Below, one piece after another: positions 56,001 to 64,000 of a DNA stretch of 64,000 bases. Location of the stretch: positions 138,583-202,582 of the IMG/VR virus record IMGVR_UViG_3300033121_000493, one strand, 5' to 3'. The notes below the pieces were generated by a model that searched no databases, had not been told where the DNA came from, and saw only the letters and a program-made list of their open reading frames with translations. This DNA comes from a virus (taxonomy: Duplodnaviria > Caudoviricetes). Position numbers and translations under genes: made by a program. Each line of letters starts with the position of its first letter. Within the stretch, counting starts at the first letter, position 1.

Positions 56001-59000
56001 CATTACAACGTCACTTCTACTGCTGAGGGGAACACGATGGTATACAGATTTGTGGCTTTTTTTAGCCCGTAGCAGAAAAAACTCTATCTCAATACAGTTA
56101 AATTTACGTGTCATTTGTGATAAACATCCGCGTTACGGAAAACTTACAGTCGTTTTGCAGCATGCGTTGTTAGAGATTCTCCTTATCTAGCCCGCGTACT
56201 AGCTTTGCTCTTATACGTCGCATCATGTCTTTCGTTTCTACATCTGGCCGAAATGAAAAAAGAATATACTTAGACGCTGCTACTATACGCACATCTACAA
56301 GAACCTTTAGTAACATAATGTGCAGTATAGTAACGCGGGCCTGTAAATACGTAGGTGACCATATATAAAACTCTATTGGCTTAGACTTAACCATTTCCTA
56401 CAATCAGCAAAGTATAGTCTATAAAACCAATCAACAGCGTTATTAAAAACTCTATGCCGCAATCGGCGTTGGAGTAGAATAGCTTCGTCATTTGTAAACC
56501 ACGTGTGTGCTACGTATATCCATATCTGGCTGCCCACTTCTTGTTCATGCATTACCCTAGTAGTACCGTTATTACTTACTACAAATTTGACACTTGAAGA
56601 CCCCTGGTTGTTTTCACGCCACTTTGGCCTTTCTACGCCCCACAAAGATCTTTTTGAGTTTGGTCGCACGGATTAGCACCATGTTTGCTCGGCTAAAAAC
56701 TAAACTCATTACGTGGCTGACAATATTAGACGCGGTACTATTGTGACTAATCACAAATGCGTATAGATGCGTTAACGGCGCAACACCTAAAACTAGCGCT
56801 TTTCTATCTTTGAATTTAATCATGCCCACCGTGGCTTCGCTAGTCATGCAGTTGGATACGATAAAATTTAATTCTAGCGCCCGGACTTTTCTAGAAGCTA
56901 TAGCTTTAATCCTCTACGTAATTTGCTGTATATTTTACCGGCTATCATGAAAATCGGGTTTGTTTTTCTGTACTCCGTCTCAAAGTCTGTGCCATAGTCA
57001 ACAATTAATATATTAGTTAAGACAATCAACTCACTTTTGTATCTTGTGGAGACGTTAATAGCTTTATTCCAAGAACCAGCGCTGGATTCAAACCAGATAG
57101 GCAACGCTACAGTACCGACTTTTTCCACGCTCTAGCTACCTGTTGTAATAGATTTTGCAGTCTGTGTTCAACATTAAATAGAATTACTGCGTCTTTAACA
57201 GGCACACTATCGTCTGCTAGTAGCACAGGACAAACATGAACGCAGATATCATAGTTTAGACGATTCCATTTATAGAGCACATTCCACCCACCGTTAAATG
57301 AGCTGTAAATATCTACACTGAGCGCTAGCGGCTCACGCATGTGGACTTTCTGCTTCGGTAGTTTCAGTGATTATTAGGTGGGGTAGTAATAGCTTTTGCG
57401 TAATGAATGCTACGTCTCTTACACAGCGTCCAATAAAGAATACAATAGCTATACAGTCGGTTGTATACCCAGACCCAGTGTAATTTATGCCCCAGGCGAG
57501 TGCTGAATCCTCGTTAATGTCTTGATTGACAAGTATGTCGTTGCGCCGCTTCATATGTTTAACTTGTTGTATAACTTTTGGGTTAGCGTAACCAAACCCG
57601 TGACTTACAAAAATCACGTCAAATGATCGTTTTGCTTCAGCCATACAGCTATTTTCGTTAAGGCAGCAACGCTCATATGATATTTTGTAAACTTGACCTG
57701 TATGCGGCCACTACCGGACTATCGTCCCTGTTAACATTTGTGACATCGTACAGTAATACAAGTGCACCACTGGATATAACATTAACGTGGACCATAGTCA
57801 CTAAAAACTCGTCCTTTGATTTTTGTATATTAACTGCCCGGCGGTACTCTGGATAGCTTGTTGTCATAAATCTAACGCTTGCTGCTGCCTGCTTTGGCAC
57901 GGCTCTCCTTATTACCAAGCTTTGCACATTGTCAGGTATATATTAGTTGTTTTACTGCCTAAACAGGCACTTAACATTTCGGCGTTTTTATGCTCAAAAG
58001 TATTGTCACAGTATATAAAGAAACGTAATCCATGCGCTATACGTGCTATTTCTTTTAAATAGTACTCATCTATATCATCATCACTTGGCATTGGATAAAA
58101 GACACTGGTACCTATGGGTACGTGTTGCTTTATCCTAAACACAATATCGTGTGACTTGCTGGCTAACATGACTAATGTCACCTTACCATAGTACGTAACG
58201 CTATCCACTGCGCAGCTATAACGCGTCCAGTCTCCGAGTGCGCTAATTCAATTCTACGTGTGGTTATTGACGGTAATTTTCCAAGCAGCGATGTTCTGGG
58301 TACAATATACACAAAAATAGCTATTTCACTGTGCCATATTTCGGCAAGATTACGTAGTGTGATATAAGATAAACATGCATTACATATTGAAAAGCGTACT
58401 GCTCGGCTCGTGTCTAGCGCCATATTACGCTTTCGGTTTGGCGGCATGCTTGCATCGTTTGTCTGTCCAAAATGTCATACGCAATACTTCGTGCGAACAT
58501 ACGATTTGCGTGGCTGGACATAGTGCTTACGATAAATGTTATTACACTGTAATCCGGAGCGCCTAACTTGTGCAATATCTTACTGCCGCCACGGTTACGG
58601 CATATCCTGATAGTAATTTCATAACTATCACCCATGAGTAAACCCGCAACGACGCAACACTGAGTCGAACACTGCACGGATACAAATGTATGCTGGGTTT
58701 GGTTTGCTTAGTCTAAAAATAGTACTTCTATGAACAATCATACGACAGTGTATTGTATGTCTACTTTTAATTTCAAATTTTGTAATTCCGCAATTATCGC
58801 GCGAGGAATCCCAGAACTCATATTCAAACTCAATTTCATGTGAAAATCCTGTTCCGTACGGCATATAACAAGACAATGCATGGCTAAGGCGGTCAAGGGG
58901 TTTACGTGCTGTTCTAGCCATTGTATTGTGCTGTGGTATCATAACCACTTTATTATGCGCAAATAATGGTTGTGCTAGCAAGCTTTGGCGCAATACGTAC

Positions 59001-59110
59001 GCTCTACATCCTATTACGTTATGGAATCTGTCATTGTAGTACCCTATGCCCGCGTTATGGTCATACCCGTCTACCAGTCGAATGTTAACTTCGAGGCTTT
59101 CAGCTTCCAC
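52981..59110 (-). other. Array B of about 20 overlapping short ORFs (mostly 60-110 aa), including clear paralogs
   Basis: SQEIY/NFIFTEDEL/AWxxY/DLSNLL family at 53287-54579; weaker neighbour similarities further along. Confidence 0.65.
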
Positions 59111-59315
59111 TATGCGAGCGCCTATGTAACGGGTTTAATCATCTGTTTCGCGTCCTATCCTACTTCTGACAGCTGTGCCGTCTTCAAGTACACCCCAGAC
59201 AGCCCGGTTTGGATTGTACGGTTCTCCATACCCGTCACCGAAGCTATCTTTGAACGGACCTTCTTTGAACTTACGCGCTCTGGCTAAATCATTAAATTCA
59301 GATATGGGTATGAAT

Positions 59316-59531
59316 TTATGGGTTGTTTGAATTGAATCCACGCGGTCTCCAGTGTGTTGGCTCGTAATAAACGTACATTCCGTCGCGTAAAAACCACAGT
59401 CGTCCTTGTTTACGCAACTCAACAACTTTATATGGGTCTGAGTTATCGGGATCGGTTGTTGTTTCAATGAATATGTCGTTTGGCGCGGTAGCGATATCGC
59501 GCCAGCCATTTGACCAAGAACTATTAGCCAT
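59316..59531 (-). CDS. DUF551-like small protein
   Basis: WRDIATAP...PTHWRP. Confidence 0.7.
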   Translation of the reverse strand: MANSSWSNGWRDIATAPNDIFIETTTDPDNSDPYKVVELRKQGRLWFLRDGMYVYYEPTHWRPRGFNSNNP

Positions 59532-59739
59532 GTTCGCTGCTCGTGGTATTAGCCTCTTCTGCTTTTGAAAGTAGCCAAGTTTCATAAGAACACCACAGAC
59601 ATAGCTTATCGCCGCTTAAACAGCTGGCGCAGTGTATCTGTCCGCAATTAGCGCATGGTGCTCTATCTTCTACGTTTACGGCATAGCATAATGGGCATTC
59701 AAAGTAATTATCGTCGTCAAACTTTTCTGATACTGACAT
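59524..59739 (-). CDS. Cys-rich zinc-finger protein
   Basis: Four CxxC motifs. Confidence 0.6.
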   Translation of the reverse strand: MSVSEKFDDDNYFECPLCYAVNVEDRAPCANCGQIHCASCLSGDKLCLWCSYETWLLSKAEEANTTSSEHG

Positions 59740-59752
59740 TTAGAACTCTTTG

Positions 59753-59926
59753 CTAATTGGTATGATTATTACCAGCAAACATGCTGCCTACTACCAGAGC
59801 CAAATAAGCCGCGCCAACACCAAAAACCAAGAAATCCGTCAGAACCGCAAGCCACTTTGATGGCTCACACTTTTCCGTAGGAGTCAAATCACTATAGGCG
59901 CTAGGCATCGAACTACGGTCATTCAT
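59753..59926 (-). CDS. Small membrane protein
   Basis: AAGGAG RBS with ATG at 59926; one TM helix. Confidence 0.6.
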   Translation of the reverse strand: MNDRSSMPSAYSDLTPTEKCEPSKWLAVLTDFLVFGVGAAYLALVVGSMFAGNNHTN

Positions 59927-59958
59927 GGCTTTCTCCTTTTGTAAGATGTAACTAACAA

Positions 59959-60071
59959 CTGAGGTTGGAGGATTCGAACCGCCTGCTAGGTATAATCTAC
60001 TGCCAGTACCCAGTAGACATAAGCTAGCTACGTTAAAAATTACGTAGTGTGTCCCACCACACTTAACCCCA
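59959..60071 (-). ncRNA. tRNA-like RNA, 113 nt, with enlarged Lys(UUU)-like anticodon loop and about 45-nt variable arm
   Basis: Acceptor TGGGGTT/AACCTCA, D-arm GTGT/ACAC, anticodon stem CTACG/CGTAG, T-arm GGCGG-TTCGAAT-CCTCC. Confidence 0.75.
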
Positions 60072-60093
60072 ACCACACAGTTCGTGTAACGCG

Positions 60094-60825
60094 CTACGTT
60101 GGCGGACGCCAATTCCAGACCGGGTTTCCAGCTGCTGCTTGTTTAAGATAAGTGCCATCGACTTTGTCATGTCGTACATATTTAGCTAGAAATTCAACCT
60201 TGCCTTGGCTCTCTACGCGCCATACGCATCCTTCTACTGGATCTATTGCACCGTGTGCCTCTGCAGATAACTTACTGACTGCCACCTCTATAGACATAGG
60301 TGGCCCAACACTTATGAGTTGTGGTAAAACAAAGCGATCGCCAATGCGAGTCGCAAACTCACTGTACGTTAGCCTGGTGTCGCCACGCATTATGTCGAAT
60401 GGGACAAACGGTAGGTGTGGGAGGTTGTATCTAGTGCCGTGGGCCAATGCCAACCACTCACCTACAACACGCTCGCCGTCTTCAAGAAAATCAAATAATG
60501 AGGTGTTGGCGTAGGCCCATTGTGCAAACAACTTTAAATGCTCAAATTGGTGGGCAATAGCTGGAACGCCAGCGCGACTAAGTGGCACAAGCGCGCCATC
60601 TATCTTAGCCACAGCCGTGCACGCCCCGTCTAGCTTTTGCTGCACTATTACTATATCGTTTACGTTGCGCGCTTTACTTAATAGTATCGCGGTTTGGCCC
60701 TTGTTTATGTGATGGTCTCCAGGTCCAAGCCGACTTCCTGGAAGATGTGGTATAGAGCCGTAGGCTTTTCTGCCTAGCGGTTTAGTCAGACTGGTGTTTG
60801 TGGTTATGTCCATTGCCGCTACCAA
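60094..60825 (-). CDS. RNA ligase, Rnl2-like nucleotidyltransferase
   Basis: Motif I QKLDG, SR, GEW, FDI, EGCVWR, AKYV. Confidence 0.85.
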   Translation of the reverse strand: MVAAMDITTNTSLTKPLGRKAYGSIPHLPGSRLGPGDHHINKGQTAILLSKARNVNDIVIVQQKLDGACTAVAKIDGALVPLSRAGVPAIAHQFEHLKLFAQWAYANTSLFDFLEDGERVVGEWLALAHGTRYNLPHLPFVPFDIMRGDTRLTYSEFATRIGDRFVLPQLISVGPPMSIEVAVSKLSAEAHGAIDPVEGCVWRVESQGKVEFLAKYVRHDKVDGTYLKQAAAGNPVWNWRPPT

Positions 60826-60867
60826 AAGGGGCCACGTAATGTCTACATAGCCCCGCCAAATAGAAAA

Positions 60868-61113
60868 TCAACTCGTCACCTTGTTCAGGTGGATTTTCCA
60901 GTCCGCCATCACCTTGTCGAAGTCCCTATTGCCGTAGATTAGGTTGTCACCGGCGTGGCAAATCACACCATTTCTGACGGATGTGTTTGATCTTGAAATA
61001 GCTGTGACGTAGGGTAGAAGAACGAACGCATCGCCGAGATCTAGAACTTTGTCGAAGCCGTGGTAAACTTCATGCGGGGCTTCACGCTTGGTTTTTGCTT
61101 TGGCCTTAGCCAC
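60868..61113 (-). CDS. Hypothetical protein
   Basis: AAGGAG RBS; GC-richer codon usage. Confidence 0.6.
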   Translation of the reverse strand: MAKAKAKTKREAPHEVYHGFDKVLDLGDAFVLLPYVTAISRSNTSVRNGVICHAGDNLIYGNRDFDKVMADWKIHLNKVTS

Positions 61114-61143
61114 GATTGCTCCTTTTGCGTGTGGTTGGTTGCA

Positions 61144-61575
61144 CTAGCCGATCGGCCTTATGTCGCACACTGCCTGCTTGCGCGTTATGTCCGATAGCAT
61201 GTCAGAGTACCCGGCCGCGCGCACCAGTGGTACTTCGCAAACAATAATATGTTTACCGTCACGTATGTCGGTAGCGACAATAGTACCTCCCCGACTCATC
61301 AAATCGTTATTCACTATACCGACAAAATCAAACGGCATCGTTACTTCGATTTTTACAAGCTGTTCGCGGCTTTTTTGCTCGTTAGCTTCTGAATATTCGC
61401 GCGTATTCCACTTAGTGTCGGCTTCAGCTTGCGTATCACCACGTGCAGTAAGGCTTACAGGACAATCCTTATTAGAGCATTTAGTAGCAAAGTGGGTTTC
61501 CCGATACAATTTACGTTCGTAACGTTCTCCAGGCCTACCGCAAAACGGGCATGGAAGAAGCGGTACAGCACTCAC
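61144..61575 (-). CDS. Lar-family zinc finger fused to an EF-G domain V (EFG_C)-like module
   Basis: LLPCPFCG...C...C...KWNTR, then KIEVTMPFDFVGIVNNDLMSRGG...EVPL...GYSDMLSDIT. Confidence 0.75.
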   Translation of the reverse strand: MSAVPLLPCPFCGRPGERYERKLYRETHFATKCSNKDCPVSLTARGDTQAEADTKWNTREYSEANEQKSREQLVKIEVTMPFDFVGIVNNDLMSRGGTIVATDIRDGKHIIVCEVPLVRAAGYSDMLSDITRKQAVCDIRPIG

Positions 61576-61789
61576 AATGCTTCTCCTTGAGACTTGGTTT
61601 CACGCCATGTATTATTGTGTATACTAAAATAGTTAAAAGCGTTACTAGAAACATCCCCATAATCAACGTTATTGCCGGTAAGAATAAATCTGGTTTATGT
61701 TCCGATAGCCACACGCAGCCATATGCTGCCCCATATATCAGCAAAACTATTACTATACCGATCCCAGCCGCAATGAAAATATCGAACAT
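61535..61789 (-). CDS. Two-TM membrane protein
   Basis: Two hydrophobic helices. Confidence 0.55.
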   Translation of the reverse strand: MFDIFIAAGIGIVIVLLIYGAAYGCVWLSEHKPDLFLPAITLIMGMFLVTLLTILVYTIIHGVKPSLKEKHCECCTASSMPVLR

Positions 61790-62194
61790 TCACTCTTCCT
61801 TTATGCCTAACGCAGCTCGCTCGGCTTTTGTCAGCTTGGCAAGAGCTCGTTTGCGCGTAGCATTTTTAGCTTTTGCCTGTTGTTCATCTTTTAAACGCTT
61901 AGCGTCAGCTTGTTGGTGTTTTTCCCACCACTCAGCAAGCTTACGGCTTTCTGCGCTTCTACCGTTGTAAATGTATTTGTCGAGCTCTTTTTCAGTAAGT
62001 TTGCTAATCATGTAACATAACTTAGCGGCGGCGTCATTATGTTTAGCTACAGTACTGTAATATGATGTTCCAGCTGAAATCCATTCTGGTATGTCTCTAT
62101 TAAGCATAACCAGCAAATCACGTAATCGTTCAAACGTATTGCGAGCTGCGCGCTCGGCATCAGTTGCTTCCATGCCAATACTGTTGCAACCCAC
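61790..62194 (-). CDS. Phage hypothetical protein
   Basis: LC...LAEWWEKHQQADAKR...ALAKLTKAERAALG. Confidence 0.65.
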   Translation of the reverse strand: MGCNSIGMEATDAERAARNTFERLRDLLVMLNRDIPEWISAGTSYYSTVAKHNDAAAKLCYMISKLTEKELDKYIYNGRSAESRKLAEWWEKHQQADAKRLKDEQQAKAKNATRKRALAKLTKAERAALGIKEE

Positions 62195-62629
62195 TCATTT
62201 TTCCTTTTTTGGGGTACGCCATTTAGGGACGGCTTTTTTGAATTGTTGAATTAGCCATTTACGTCTGGCTCTAGCAGCAGTTCGCACTGTTGCTAGCAGA
62301 GCTAGAGCATCTTCATCTAAATGTTCTTTGCGTGAGCGCGCTAAATGGCCTGCGCATCCCAACGCATCCTCTAGTGCGTCAAAGGTTCGCGTTACGCACG
62401 GCCCGTCGCCAGGGCTGATAGCGCTATGAGTTATCCCGATTGGGCATTTAGTACAATCTCCAACACGGCCGTCTGTTAGTGCCGCGCGGCACAGCTGACA
62501 CCCTCCGGTTGTGCCGTAAAAACACCATGCGTTAAGGCGTTCTCTAGGGTTGGCAATTAACAGATCGTATGCCACGATTGTTTTGTCCATCGCCTTCAAC
62601 ATCTTTTGTGTAGGTTTATATTTTTTCAT
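62195..62629 (-). CDS. Cys-rich hypothetical protein
   Basis: CQLC...CTKCP...PC. Confidence 0.6.
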   Translation of the reverse strand: MKKYKPTQKMLKAMDKTIVAYDLLIANPRERLNAWCFYGTTGGCQLCRAALTDGRVGDCTKCPIGITHSAISPGDGPCVTRTFDALEDALGCAGHLARSRKEHLDEDALALLATVRTAARARRKWLIQQFKKAVPKWRTPKKEK

Positions 62630-62720
62630 TTGTCAGTTATCTCTACGTACATGGCGTATATAGTCAATAAACTTATTATCAGTACAAGTACACTAGCGAT
62701 AATACACCCCGCGTTACCGT

Positions 62721-63077
62721 TCATTTGGCCTCCGGATGAGTTTTAACTGCTTTGTCTGCGGCATAGTCATATTTACCGATAACTGCGTCAGCACAAAATT
62801 TCCAGTGTCCGGCAACAGCATCACTGTATGACGAGTAGCGTTCACAAGCTAAGTCAATCATTTTTGCGCCATTGGCAAACACCATTGTTTCAAACAATAT
62901 CGGCGCGCCTTCTTCTAAAAAATTGTGGTCTAATCCTAAAAAGACAGTAGACACCCGAACTTTTGGATAATCAGTTCTTAGAAGCCGCCAGTGAGACGTA
63001 TCTTTTGGCGGAAAATCACATTGTACTACAGTGTTATCTTTATTAAGATCGTACCAGGCGTACCATCTTTTTGCCAT
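62721..63077 (-). CDS. Phage hypothetical protein
   Basis: VSTVFLGLDH...PILFETMVF...RY...A..GH motif common in phages. Confidence 0.65.
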   Translation of the reverse strand: MAKRWYAWYDLNKDNTVVQCDFPPKDTSHWRLLRTDYPKVRVSTVFLGLDHNFLEEGAPILFETMVFANGAKMIDLACERYSSYSDAVAGHWKFCADAVIGKYDYAADKAVKTHPEAK

Positions 63078-63093
63078 TGATAGTTATCCTTTA

Positions 63094-63946
63094 TTAACTA
63101 GCGTTGGGATCAAGTCGATAGGCGACAACGCGGTAGCCGTTCTTGTTCCAAAGCTCGCCCATGCCTTCGCTGTCGCTTTGCTTGACCGGCTGCCCATCGT
63201 CGTTGTAAGCGACGTACAAGGTCATTGGCTGTAGCGGCCGTTGCTCCGCGCTTATCACCTGCTCAACTCTAGCTTTAATTGGTTCATTCATGTTTACACT
63301 CTTCTTGCTTTGAGCATGGCCTTTGTTGTTGCCTTTTTCGCGTCGTCCAGACTTGTACTTCAGTGCGGCATTCATGTCGCTAAGTGTATCATTAGCCAAA
63401 AACGCTATCTTTAGGTCTGCTTTCTCGGCAATCCGTTCGAGAGATGCCCTCGCAATAGGATGAACCGACCGCCACTCCCGCCACTTCGTCGGCGTTTTTG
63501 GAGGTGTCTTGGTTGCGGTCTTGCGCTTGGTCATTTCCTGCCCCAGTTCTCGGAGATACCGTATGTGACTATCAGACCAATCACCACGACGCACCCAAAT
63601 ACGCACCAACAAATTGCTTGGATTCCACCTTCGCTCACTCTCGCACCCCCAGTTGGCGTTCGGCGGCTTTGTAGCCCTTTGTGAAGTCGTCCTCTCCAAA
63701 CTTAGACGCATCGCTACCCAGAAACCACTTGTGAATTTCCTCATCGCTCGCAGGCTGCATCGGCGGGGTGATGGTGACGATGGCATAGGTGAAGGCGGGA
63801 TTCCTTTGTACGCCTTCGATGGTTTGTCGGTCGCCATAAGAATTCGGCCACCACCTACCATCTTCCCAATACCACAGTTGGCACGGTGGCAGCGGCGGCA
63901 GTTGCGATTGGATTACTTGGGCAGTTGCGTTGGCGTTGGTTGTCAT
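63094..63946 (-). CDS. Two hypothetical genes (63635-63946 and about 63094-63534)
   Basis: GGAG and AGGA RBSs; starts uncertain. Confidence 0.45.
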
Positions 63947-64000
63947 TCGGTCTCTCCGTTCCAGAGTTTTGCGGTTTTCTTGGCGGTCTGCTCGTCAAGC

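Follow-up and report, generated by a model that had tools for sequence, protein, structure and literature searches.

Whole translation factors in huge phages and single ribosomal-protein domains in phages (such as the bL12 head) are already known, and phages capture other stalk-region modules, e.g. bL12 domains, which are often embedded in larger proteins (PMC6375957). The protein described here is comparable to the phage domains surveyed by Mizuno et al. 2019 (bL12, the bL9 N-domain, bS21 and HPF) in that it likewise offers one domain of the factor-binding region, at ~30-40% identity to the cellular form, embedded in a phage-specific protein, as is the case for bL12 (PMC6375957). In contrast to the members of that survey, the domain captured here is that of a translation factor rather than of a ribosomal protein, and its partner is a Lar ribbon; EF-G domains are absent from the listing in the survey (PMC6375957), and no report of a phage with an isolated EF-G domain was found in the literature searched. 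The full-length EF-G of huge phages (PHROG 6880) is a phage-borne EF-G-family sequence whose domain V aligns with the fusion at 35% identity; it is, however, a complete five-domain GTPase that can act as a factor, whereas the fusion contains one domain only. A 708-aa five-domain EF-G gene of this kind is found in an uncultured 636-kb phage (L013:2165-4291; LR756504.1), the record of which carries no annotation.

Among cellular proteins the counterpart of the captured piece is domain V of bacterial EF-G (9ghd chain W, 1dar, 6not), which has the same fold and belongs to the same family, with the core and the H43/H44-facing hairpin conserved in the phage version. Unlike bacterial EF-G, the phage protein has neither the G domain nor domains II-IV and is fused to a zinc ribbon. 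This ribbon resembles Lar/RalR of the E. coli Rac prophage and the PF14354/TIGR03655 families in its N-terminal CPFC...C-x4-C...WNxR pattern; Lar itself is only ~60 aa long, whereas the phage ribbon carries a 72-residue translation-factor domain. The Lar-EF-G fusion extends two known kinds of protein, namely fusions of the Lar ribbon and phage captures of domains of the translation apparatus. A functional analogy in terms of target protection is provided by the fusidic-acid resistance proteins FusB and FusC, two small proteins that work where EF-G meets the ribosome. FusB contains a zinc finger. FusB binds EF-G but does not imitate it, and no sequence or fold relation between FusB and the fusion was found; FusB/FusC are also able to attach to the ribosome close to the SRL, H43 and H89 (PMC12008383).

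Gene and domain architecture

The gene lies in the window, i.e. the whole stretch of 64,000 nucleotides analysed here, which is the final 64 kb of a 202,582-bp IMG/VR virus record rated complete by CheckV. The genome of this uncultured phage (~203 kb, 45% G+C) contains 11 tRNA genes and encodes a family A DNA polymerase, SbcC and a gpA-type terminase. Among isolates, Salmonella phage Arash and some Vibrio phages come closest, with a terminase (TerL) only ~27% identical to that of this phage, and a TerL pattern search recovered no close kin phages. The features of the gene are:

61144..61575, minus strand: gene for a Lar zinc ribbon, a linker helix and an EF-G-type domain V, 143 codons plus stop (ORF list, translation)
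61583..61588, minus strand: Shine-Dalgarno sequence AAGGAG, 7 nt upstream of the GTG (read from the sequence)
61399..61560, minus strand: Lar-family zinc ribbon, residues 6-59 (PF14354 match, invariants, model)
61363..61398, minus strand: linker, residues 60-71, with a modelled short helix at 63-71 (AF2 secondary structure)
61147..61362, minus strand: complete EF-G-type domain V, residues 72-143 (PF00679 match, VIA-align superposition)

The GTG at 61573-61575 (minus strand) is the sole start codon ahead of the CPFC zinc knuckle. An ORF for a predicted membrane protein of 84 aa (61535-61789) overlaps the start of the fusion gene by 41 nt (61535-61575) in another frame, an 81-aa ORF begins 30 nt downstream of the gene, and together with its neighbors the gene forms one co-directional array of small genes. 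The AF2 model of the 143-aa protein has a mean pLDDT of 92.3 (alignment A2), with the lowest confidence in the linker block (pLDDT 76). As to identity and architecture, it is practically certain that the product comprises two autonomous modules, an N-terminal Lar-family zinc ribbon and a C-terminal bacterial-type EF-G domain V. This agrees with the first-pass annotation, which had read 61144-61575 as a Lar zinc finger fused to an EF-G domain V-like module and had proposed an hmmscan for PF14354 and PF00679: the ORF is as described, and both Pfam domains score above their cut-offs on it.

The assignment of the first half to the Lar restriction-alleviation family, which had also been made there, is borne out by the match of residues 6-59 to Lar_restr_allev (PF14354), a marginal pass with 28.9 bits where 28.6 are required (the genome scan gives 30.4 bits), and by the presence of all the invariants of the family. 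The zinc ribbon motifs consist of Cys9, Cys12, Cys33 and Cys38 together with W56-N57-x-R59. In 70 aligned Lar-domain sequences the residues C9, P10, C12, C33, C38, W56 and N57 are invariant, and seven out of seven are present in the fusion; P8, F11, G13, A52 and R59 are nearly invariant, and all of these are present too. Of the alignment, 69 members, namely the fragments homologous to the N-terminal part of the fusion, are themselves PF14354 members, and in the PHROGs collection the fusion protein is matched by phrog_599, 'Lar-like restriction alleviation protein' (E 2.9e-8). The closest Lar relative (P0002) is located on an unrelated small contig. With the TIGR03655 subfamily model of NCBIfam the ribbon scores 29.6 bits, below the cut-off of 39.6, and the equivalog model for the RalR type I toxin DNase (NF007260), which requires 113 bits, is not matched (9.9 bits, E 1.1). 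In the AF2 model the ribbon forms three strands and a helix (residues 16-58, pLDDT 86-95), and it reaches a pLDDT of 84 when folded alone. Searches with the ribbon model yielded no informative structural relatives in the PDB by Foldseek (best E only 0.49), and by VIA-align against 48,161 chains the best Z was 4.8, for a dsRBD-like topology, which is within noise.

The C-terminal half recovers EFG_C (PF00679) over residues 71-140 with 42.9 bits against a cut-off of 27.9, spanning profile positions 4-74 of 89, and the match is confirmed on the genome. A second PHROG, phrog_6880 ('translation elongation factor'), also matches the fusion protein. A phmmer search against the PDB gave matches to EF-G, mitochondrial EF-G2, TetQ and EF-2, at domain V each time; nearly all of the 44 matches listed are EF-G domain V (best 6not_A, E 1.6e-5), and the one row outside domain V is a weak MutM zinc-finger match (E 0.36). 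When the NCBIfam models are ranked on this part of the protein, true EF-G comes first, followed by EF-G2, the Tet protection proteins, LepA and archaeal EF-2. The full-length EF-G models TIGR00484 and NF009381 stay below their cut-offs of 583 and 659 bits, with 31 and 27 bits, respectively. Residues 73-141 of the AF2 model form a beta-alpha-beta-beta-alpha-beta unit with the last strand included, and residues 72-143 superpose by VIA-align on residues 603-674 of S. aureus EF-G with a Z of 15.1 and an rmsd of 1.0 A over 72 residues. The best structural match of the model is 9ghd, the FusB-EF-G-70S* entry; the structural matches are to domain V of EF-G, EF-G2, mtEFG2, BipA, LepA, EF2 and Snu114, the Foldseek PDB list consists almost entirely of translocase-type factors, and the shape search of the ESM Atlas returned EF-G clusters only. 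The feature search of the ESM Atlas yielded no usable match for the fusion protein.

Given the specific Pfam score and the superposition at 1.0 A, the C-terminal half is domain V of EF-G itself, something more specific than a ferredoxin-like fold. A generic fold of the latter type, which the first-pass annotation had named as the outcome that would speak against its assignment, is ruled out, as this half scores and superposes specifically as EF-G domain V. A remnant of a decayed fusA gene is likewise ruled out: EFG_III and EFG_IV have no match anywhere in the phage genome, and GTP_EFTU gives only a sub-threshold match of 12.5 bits, inside a 752-aa frame. The best identity of the fusion protein to any of 1.84 billion protein-cluster representatives is ~42%. 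Domain V is a complete copy of a bacterial-type EF-G domain that has diverged to ~40% identity, without any other EF-G domain.

Occurrence of the fusion

The identical ORF was read on seven contigs from independent ENA and Logan assemblies, one of these contigs being 156 kb long. The junction between the domains is bridged by contigs of three further samples, and the order of genes on independent contigs is constant (84-aa membrane protein, Lar-EF-G gene, 81-aa gene, RNA ligase). Thus, the identical ORF and gene order in independent assemblies rule out an assembly chimera; the possibility raised in the first-pass annotation, that two genes had been joined by an assembly error, is excluded by the same uninterrupted ORF in independent assemblies, in which the junction is intact. 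The stretch is present in runs from 9 studies, which sampled activated sludge, wastewater and river water; the gene is a genuine and intact part of the genome of this uncultured phage.

The DNA of positions 58000-64000 of the window is 99.98-100% identical to independent contigs (L014-L018) over ~6 kb. The phage population is very uniform and widespread across assemblies of different studies, and the runs that carry it span 2018-2025. A single variant strain was found, the changes of which are mostly non-synonymous: a contig from a metatranscriptome library (X4) has D103G, K108R and one synonymous change, and a further version of the protein (P0151) has R25W and G86S in addition to D103G and K108R. 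The fusion gene occurs on contigs of metatranscriptome libraries, which is no proof of transcription, as such libraries can contain DNA.

The rarity of the architecture was examined by an exhaustive HMMER search of all 1.84 billion protein-cluster representatives, which recovered no protein with both domains except the query. In this search 111 representatives match the ribbon only and 38 match domain V only; those of the latter that were checked were for the most part pieces of ordinary EF-G genes or belonged to chimeric contigs. No protein with both domains was found in GenBank phages, where only the full-length EF-G of the 636-kb phage was returned, or in BFVD, where only a giant-virus EF-2 fragment and Lar proteins were. 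A word-index search for relatives of the fusion recovered only the protein itself, and a pattern scan of IMG/VR recovered none. Two proteins with long alignments to the query (P0100 and P0106) were rejected as candidates, in that the alignments extend past the ribbon, yet the extension is not a domain V. The literature on Lar ribbons, phage EF-G domain V and anti-defence yielded no description of a Lar-EF-G fusion. With no second protein of this kind in the 1.84 billion representatives, GenBank phages or BFVD, and none in the literature searched, the suggestion that the fusion had not been described holds up; the architecture is a singleton restricted to one phage species.

The longer ones among the 111 ribbon-only relatives have tandem ribbons or, most often, a ribbon N-terminal to diverse extensions that match no Pfam family. 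The Lar ribbon is a common and promiscuous building block that occurs alone, in tandem or N-terminal to many extensions. The same phage encodes a second protein with a Lar domain outside the window (G000:C1:2581-3069, minus strand; PF14354, 35.4 bits), whose C-terminal half is a Cys-rich module resembling the neighboring 65-aa ORF at 1123-1320; if the phage genome is circularly permuted, this gene would lie ~5.4 kb away.

Genomic neighborhood

A gene of the RNA_ligase family (PF09414) lies two genes downstream of the Lar-EF-G gene, and it is flanked by two structured elements:

60828..60854, minus strand: terminator-like hairpin followed by UUUUGG, with a 12-pair stem by pattern scan (-20.9 kcal/mol, z -3.25)
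59959-60072, minus strand: tRNA-shaped element adjoining the RNA ligase gene on its downstream side, with a canonical GGUUCGAAUCC T arm

The hairpin is situated directly after the stop of the 81-aa gene and ahead of the RNA ligase gene, and is likely to be an intrinsic terminator or a processing site. The tRNA-shaped element has a long extra arm and an irregular anticodon loop, and overlaps a doubtful 119-aa ORF; against the Rfam tRNA-Sec model it scores 18.2 bits (E 0.6, gathering score 47), and no tRNA was found in the window by ARAGORN or by Rfam at the gathering score. Apart from the ligase, the neighboring genes had no translation-related or otherwise informative family matches. Seven relatives of the RNA ligase in other viral contigs showed no synteny around them, their neighbors being different. 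The first-pass annotation had seen in this region an island for the protection of translation. The ligase two genes downstream agrees with that idea; the hairpin and U-run in between, the tRNA-like RNA with its mere 18.2 bits and the other neighbors without any translation match do not, and such an island is weakly supported; a joint function with the ligase is possible but finds no support.

Ribosome-contact residues and possible functions

The residues of the phage domain V were compared with those of the 38 nearest EF-G domain V sequences, and published contacts were mapped by structural alignment. Residues critical for the EF-G fold are kept (P81, G86, D91, L92, R95, I99, R105, V115, P116, L117, G122, Y123 and L127), and the net charge is ordinary for a domain V. 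In E. coli EF-G, Leu641 and Gln644 (3j9z numbering) touch A1067 and A1096 of H43/H44 (PMC4517844). Their equivalents in the phage protein are I99 and T102, which are both majority residues of EF-G, a statement about conservation of the positions only. In T. thermophilus EF-G, Arg660, Ser661 and Gln664 form a hydrogen-bond network with A2660/G2661 of the sarcin-ricin loop and with uL6 (PMC6562825). These are replaced by S128, D129 and R132, so that all three residues of this network are changed, at positions where the EF-G consensus is R (89%), S (82%) and Q (71%). The signature concerned, LRSxTQGRA, is the most conserved one of EF-G and reads LSDITRKQA in the phage domain V, a difference from bacterial EF-G that removes the Arg/Ser/Gln network with the sarcin-ricin loop. 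The conserved EF-G positions R96, F121, G133 and R134 are also changed; with these and the sarcin-ricin-loop residues altered, a part of the ribosome interface of EF-G is gone. The stalk-base face thus looks preserved and the GTPase-activating face looks lost, and the pattern of residues argues for a putative binder rather than an EF-G-like activator. A complex prediction for domain V (residues 66-143) with E. coli uL11 gave a score of 0.21 and a mark of 0.32, which speaks neither for nor against binding.

We favor, tentatively, the reading that the protein might be a partial EF-G mimic that binds the ribosomal stalk base, which we consider a real possibility. The domain may have been captured from a fusA-type gene and thereafter kept under selection; the signal of selection is that the best identity is only ~42%, yet the fold-critical residues of EF-G and all the Lar invariants have been kept. 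Domain V would dock in the cleft that it occupies in EF-G, at the stalk base formed by uL11 and H43-H44 next to helix 95, with the zinc ribbon supplying a second contact to RNA or protein and making up for the missing EF-G domains. With the residues of the GTPase-activating network at the sarcin-ricin loop replaced, the protein is proposed to occupy or shield the factor-binding site while activating nothing, and during infection could in this manner modulate how EF-G, other translational GTPases, RelA or ribosome-directed toxins reach that site. Tight ribosome binding by a domain V on its own is not known. In the FusB-EF-G-70S* structure only domains IV-V of EF-G are ordered, domains I-III being disordered; domain V keeps its place between H44 and H95, where it touches the SRL, H43/H44 and uL6 (PMC12008383). 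By analogy, autonomous docking of domain V without the rest of the factor appears plausible. A more elaborate proposal, which we hold to be on the doubtful side, is that this would be the first stand-alone domain V mimic of a phage, tethered by its ribbon, and that it would occupy either the cleft from uL11/H43-H44 to helix 95 or a defence protein that reads this surface, thereby protecting or reprogramming translation.

Alternatively, the ribbon could be the working part, in a Lar-type role unconnected with translation: it might, for instance, alleviate restriction or bind DNA, as has been reported for Lar/RalR of the Rac prophage, and the EF-G domain might serve only as a stable ferredoxin-like scaffold, an oligomerisation unit or a generic nucleic-acid-binding unit. 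The promiscuity of the ribbon among the 111 Lar-only relatives, in tandem or with diverse extensions, would fit such a role, as would the second Lar fusion of this phage with its different Cys-rich C-terminal part and the position of the gene within an array of small accessory genes that have no informative families. It is harder to reconcile with the retention of EF-G-specific core and hairpin residues, and not of the fold alone, after long divergence; furthermore, Lar has been described both as a restriction alleviation protein and as the RalR DNase toxin (PMC4041452), and the RalR model is unmatched, with 9.9 bits against 113. On balance this role is rather unlikely. A decoy function, which the first-pass annotation had suggested alongside a modulator that binds the ribosome, is a further alternative: domain V would imitate the surface of host EF-G and titrate a defence protein, toxin or modifying enzyme that recognizes EF-G, or it would bind the G domain of EF-G in trans, at the place where domain V usually packs, and thereby tune the host factor. 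The literature searched yields no defence system or toxin that recognizes domain V of EF-G, and a domain with ~40% identity to any EF-G and with several conserved surface residues changed would make a poor imitation for a sensor adapted to the factor of the host. On the other side, the domain is specifically EF-G-like and not LepA-, BipA- or Tet-like, it is structurally near-identical to domain V, the loss of SRL-contact residues is in keeping with a surface for which the ribosome has become dispensable, and domain V directly contacts the G domain within EF-G (PMC5207388). We regard a decoy as unlikely.

That the ORF is a recent chimera devoid of function, or an artefact of assembly or gene calling, might be suggested by the singleton architecture in one phage species and by the few strain variants with mostly non-synonymous changes. 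This is very unlikely in view of DNA that differs little or not at all between independent assemblies, which come from several studies and years, the strong Shine-Dalgarno sequence and intact frame, the family invariants that both domains have kept despite 40-50% identity to the nearest relatives, and the confident AF2 model; its artefact part is largely refuted. In classical EF-G/ternary-complex mimicry domain V takes roughly the place of a tRNA arm, and one could conceive of a module for RNA repair or tRNA protection that includes the neighboring RNA ligase and the tRNA-like element, with domain V as a mimic that distracts tRNA-directed nucleases. The PF09414 gene two genes downstream, the tRNA-shaped element with a canonical T arm after it and the gene order, which is fixed in all contigs, would be in keeping with such a module; the stable terminator-like hairpin between the ligase and Lar-EF-G genes, the failure of the tRNA-like element to reach any detection threshold and the 7 ligase relatives in other viral contigs without a nearby Lar-EF-G gene speak against it, and we consider it the most improbable of these explanations.

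Returning to the partial mimic of EF-G, if the stalk base or a host protein that recognizes EF-G is bound, the fusion would be a naturally occurring compact tool that acts at the factor-binding site; true binding would also mean a new viral way to interfere with, or to protect, host translation. The Lar ribbon, which is widespread and mechanistically obscure, would thereby gain a testable role as a tethering module, and the more elaborate proposal of a tethered mimic, if true, would amount to target protection or decoy counter-defence made from a piece of a translation factor. If neither kind of binding takes place, the gene would simply be another orphan among accessory genes, unusual in its evolutionary origin.

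Outside phages, a small family of bacterial proteins of ~180 aa (P0013 and P0030; L019:4001-4543, L020:4001-4552, L021:561-1112) combines an N-terminal part of 80 residues with a canonical EFG_C domain (87-94 bits); in P0030 the N-terminal part has a weak match to EFG_III (17 bits). Their genes adjoin genes for XRE-type HTH proteins, in a context that is toxin-antitoxin-like or mobile, and they look like an independent case of C-terminal domains of EF-G occurring outside EF-G.
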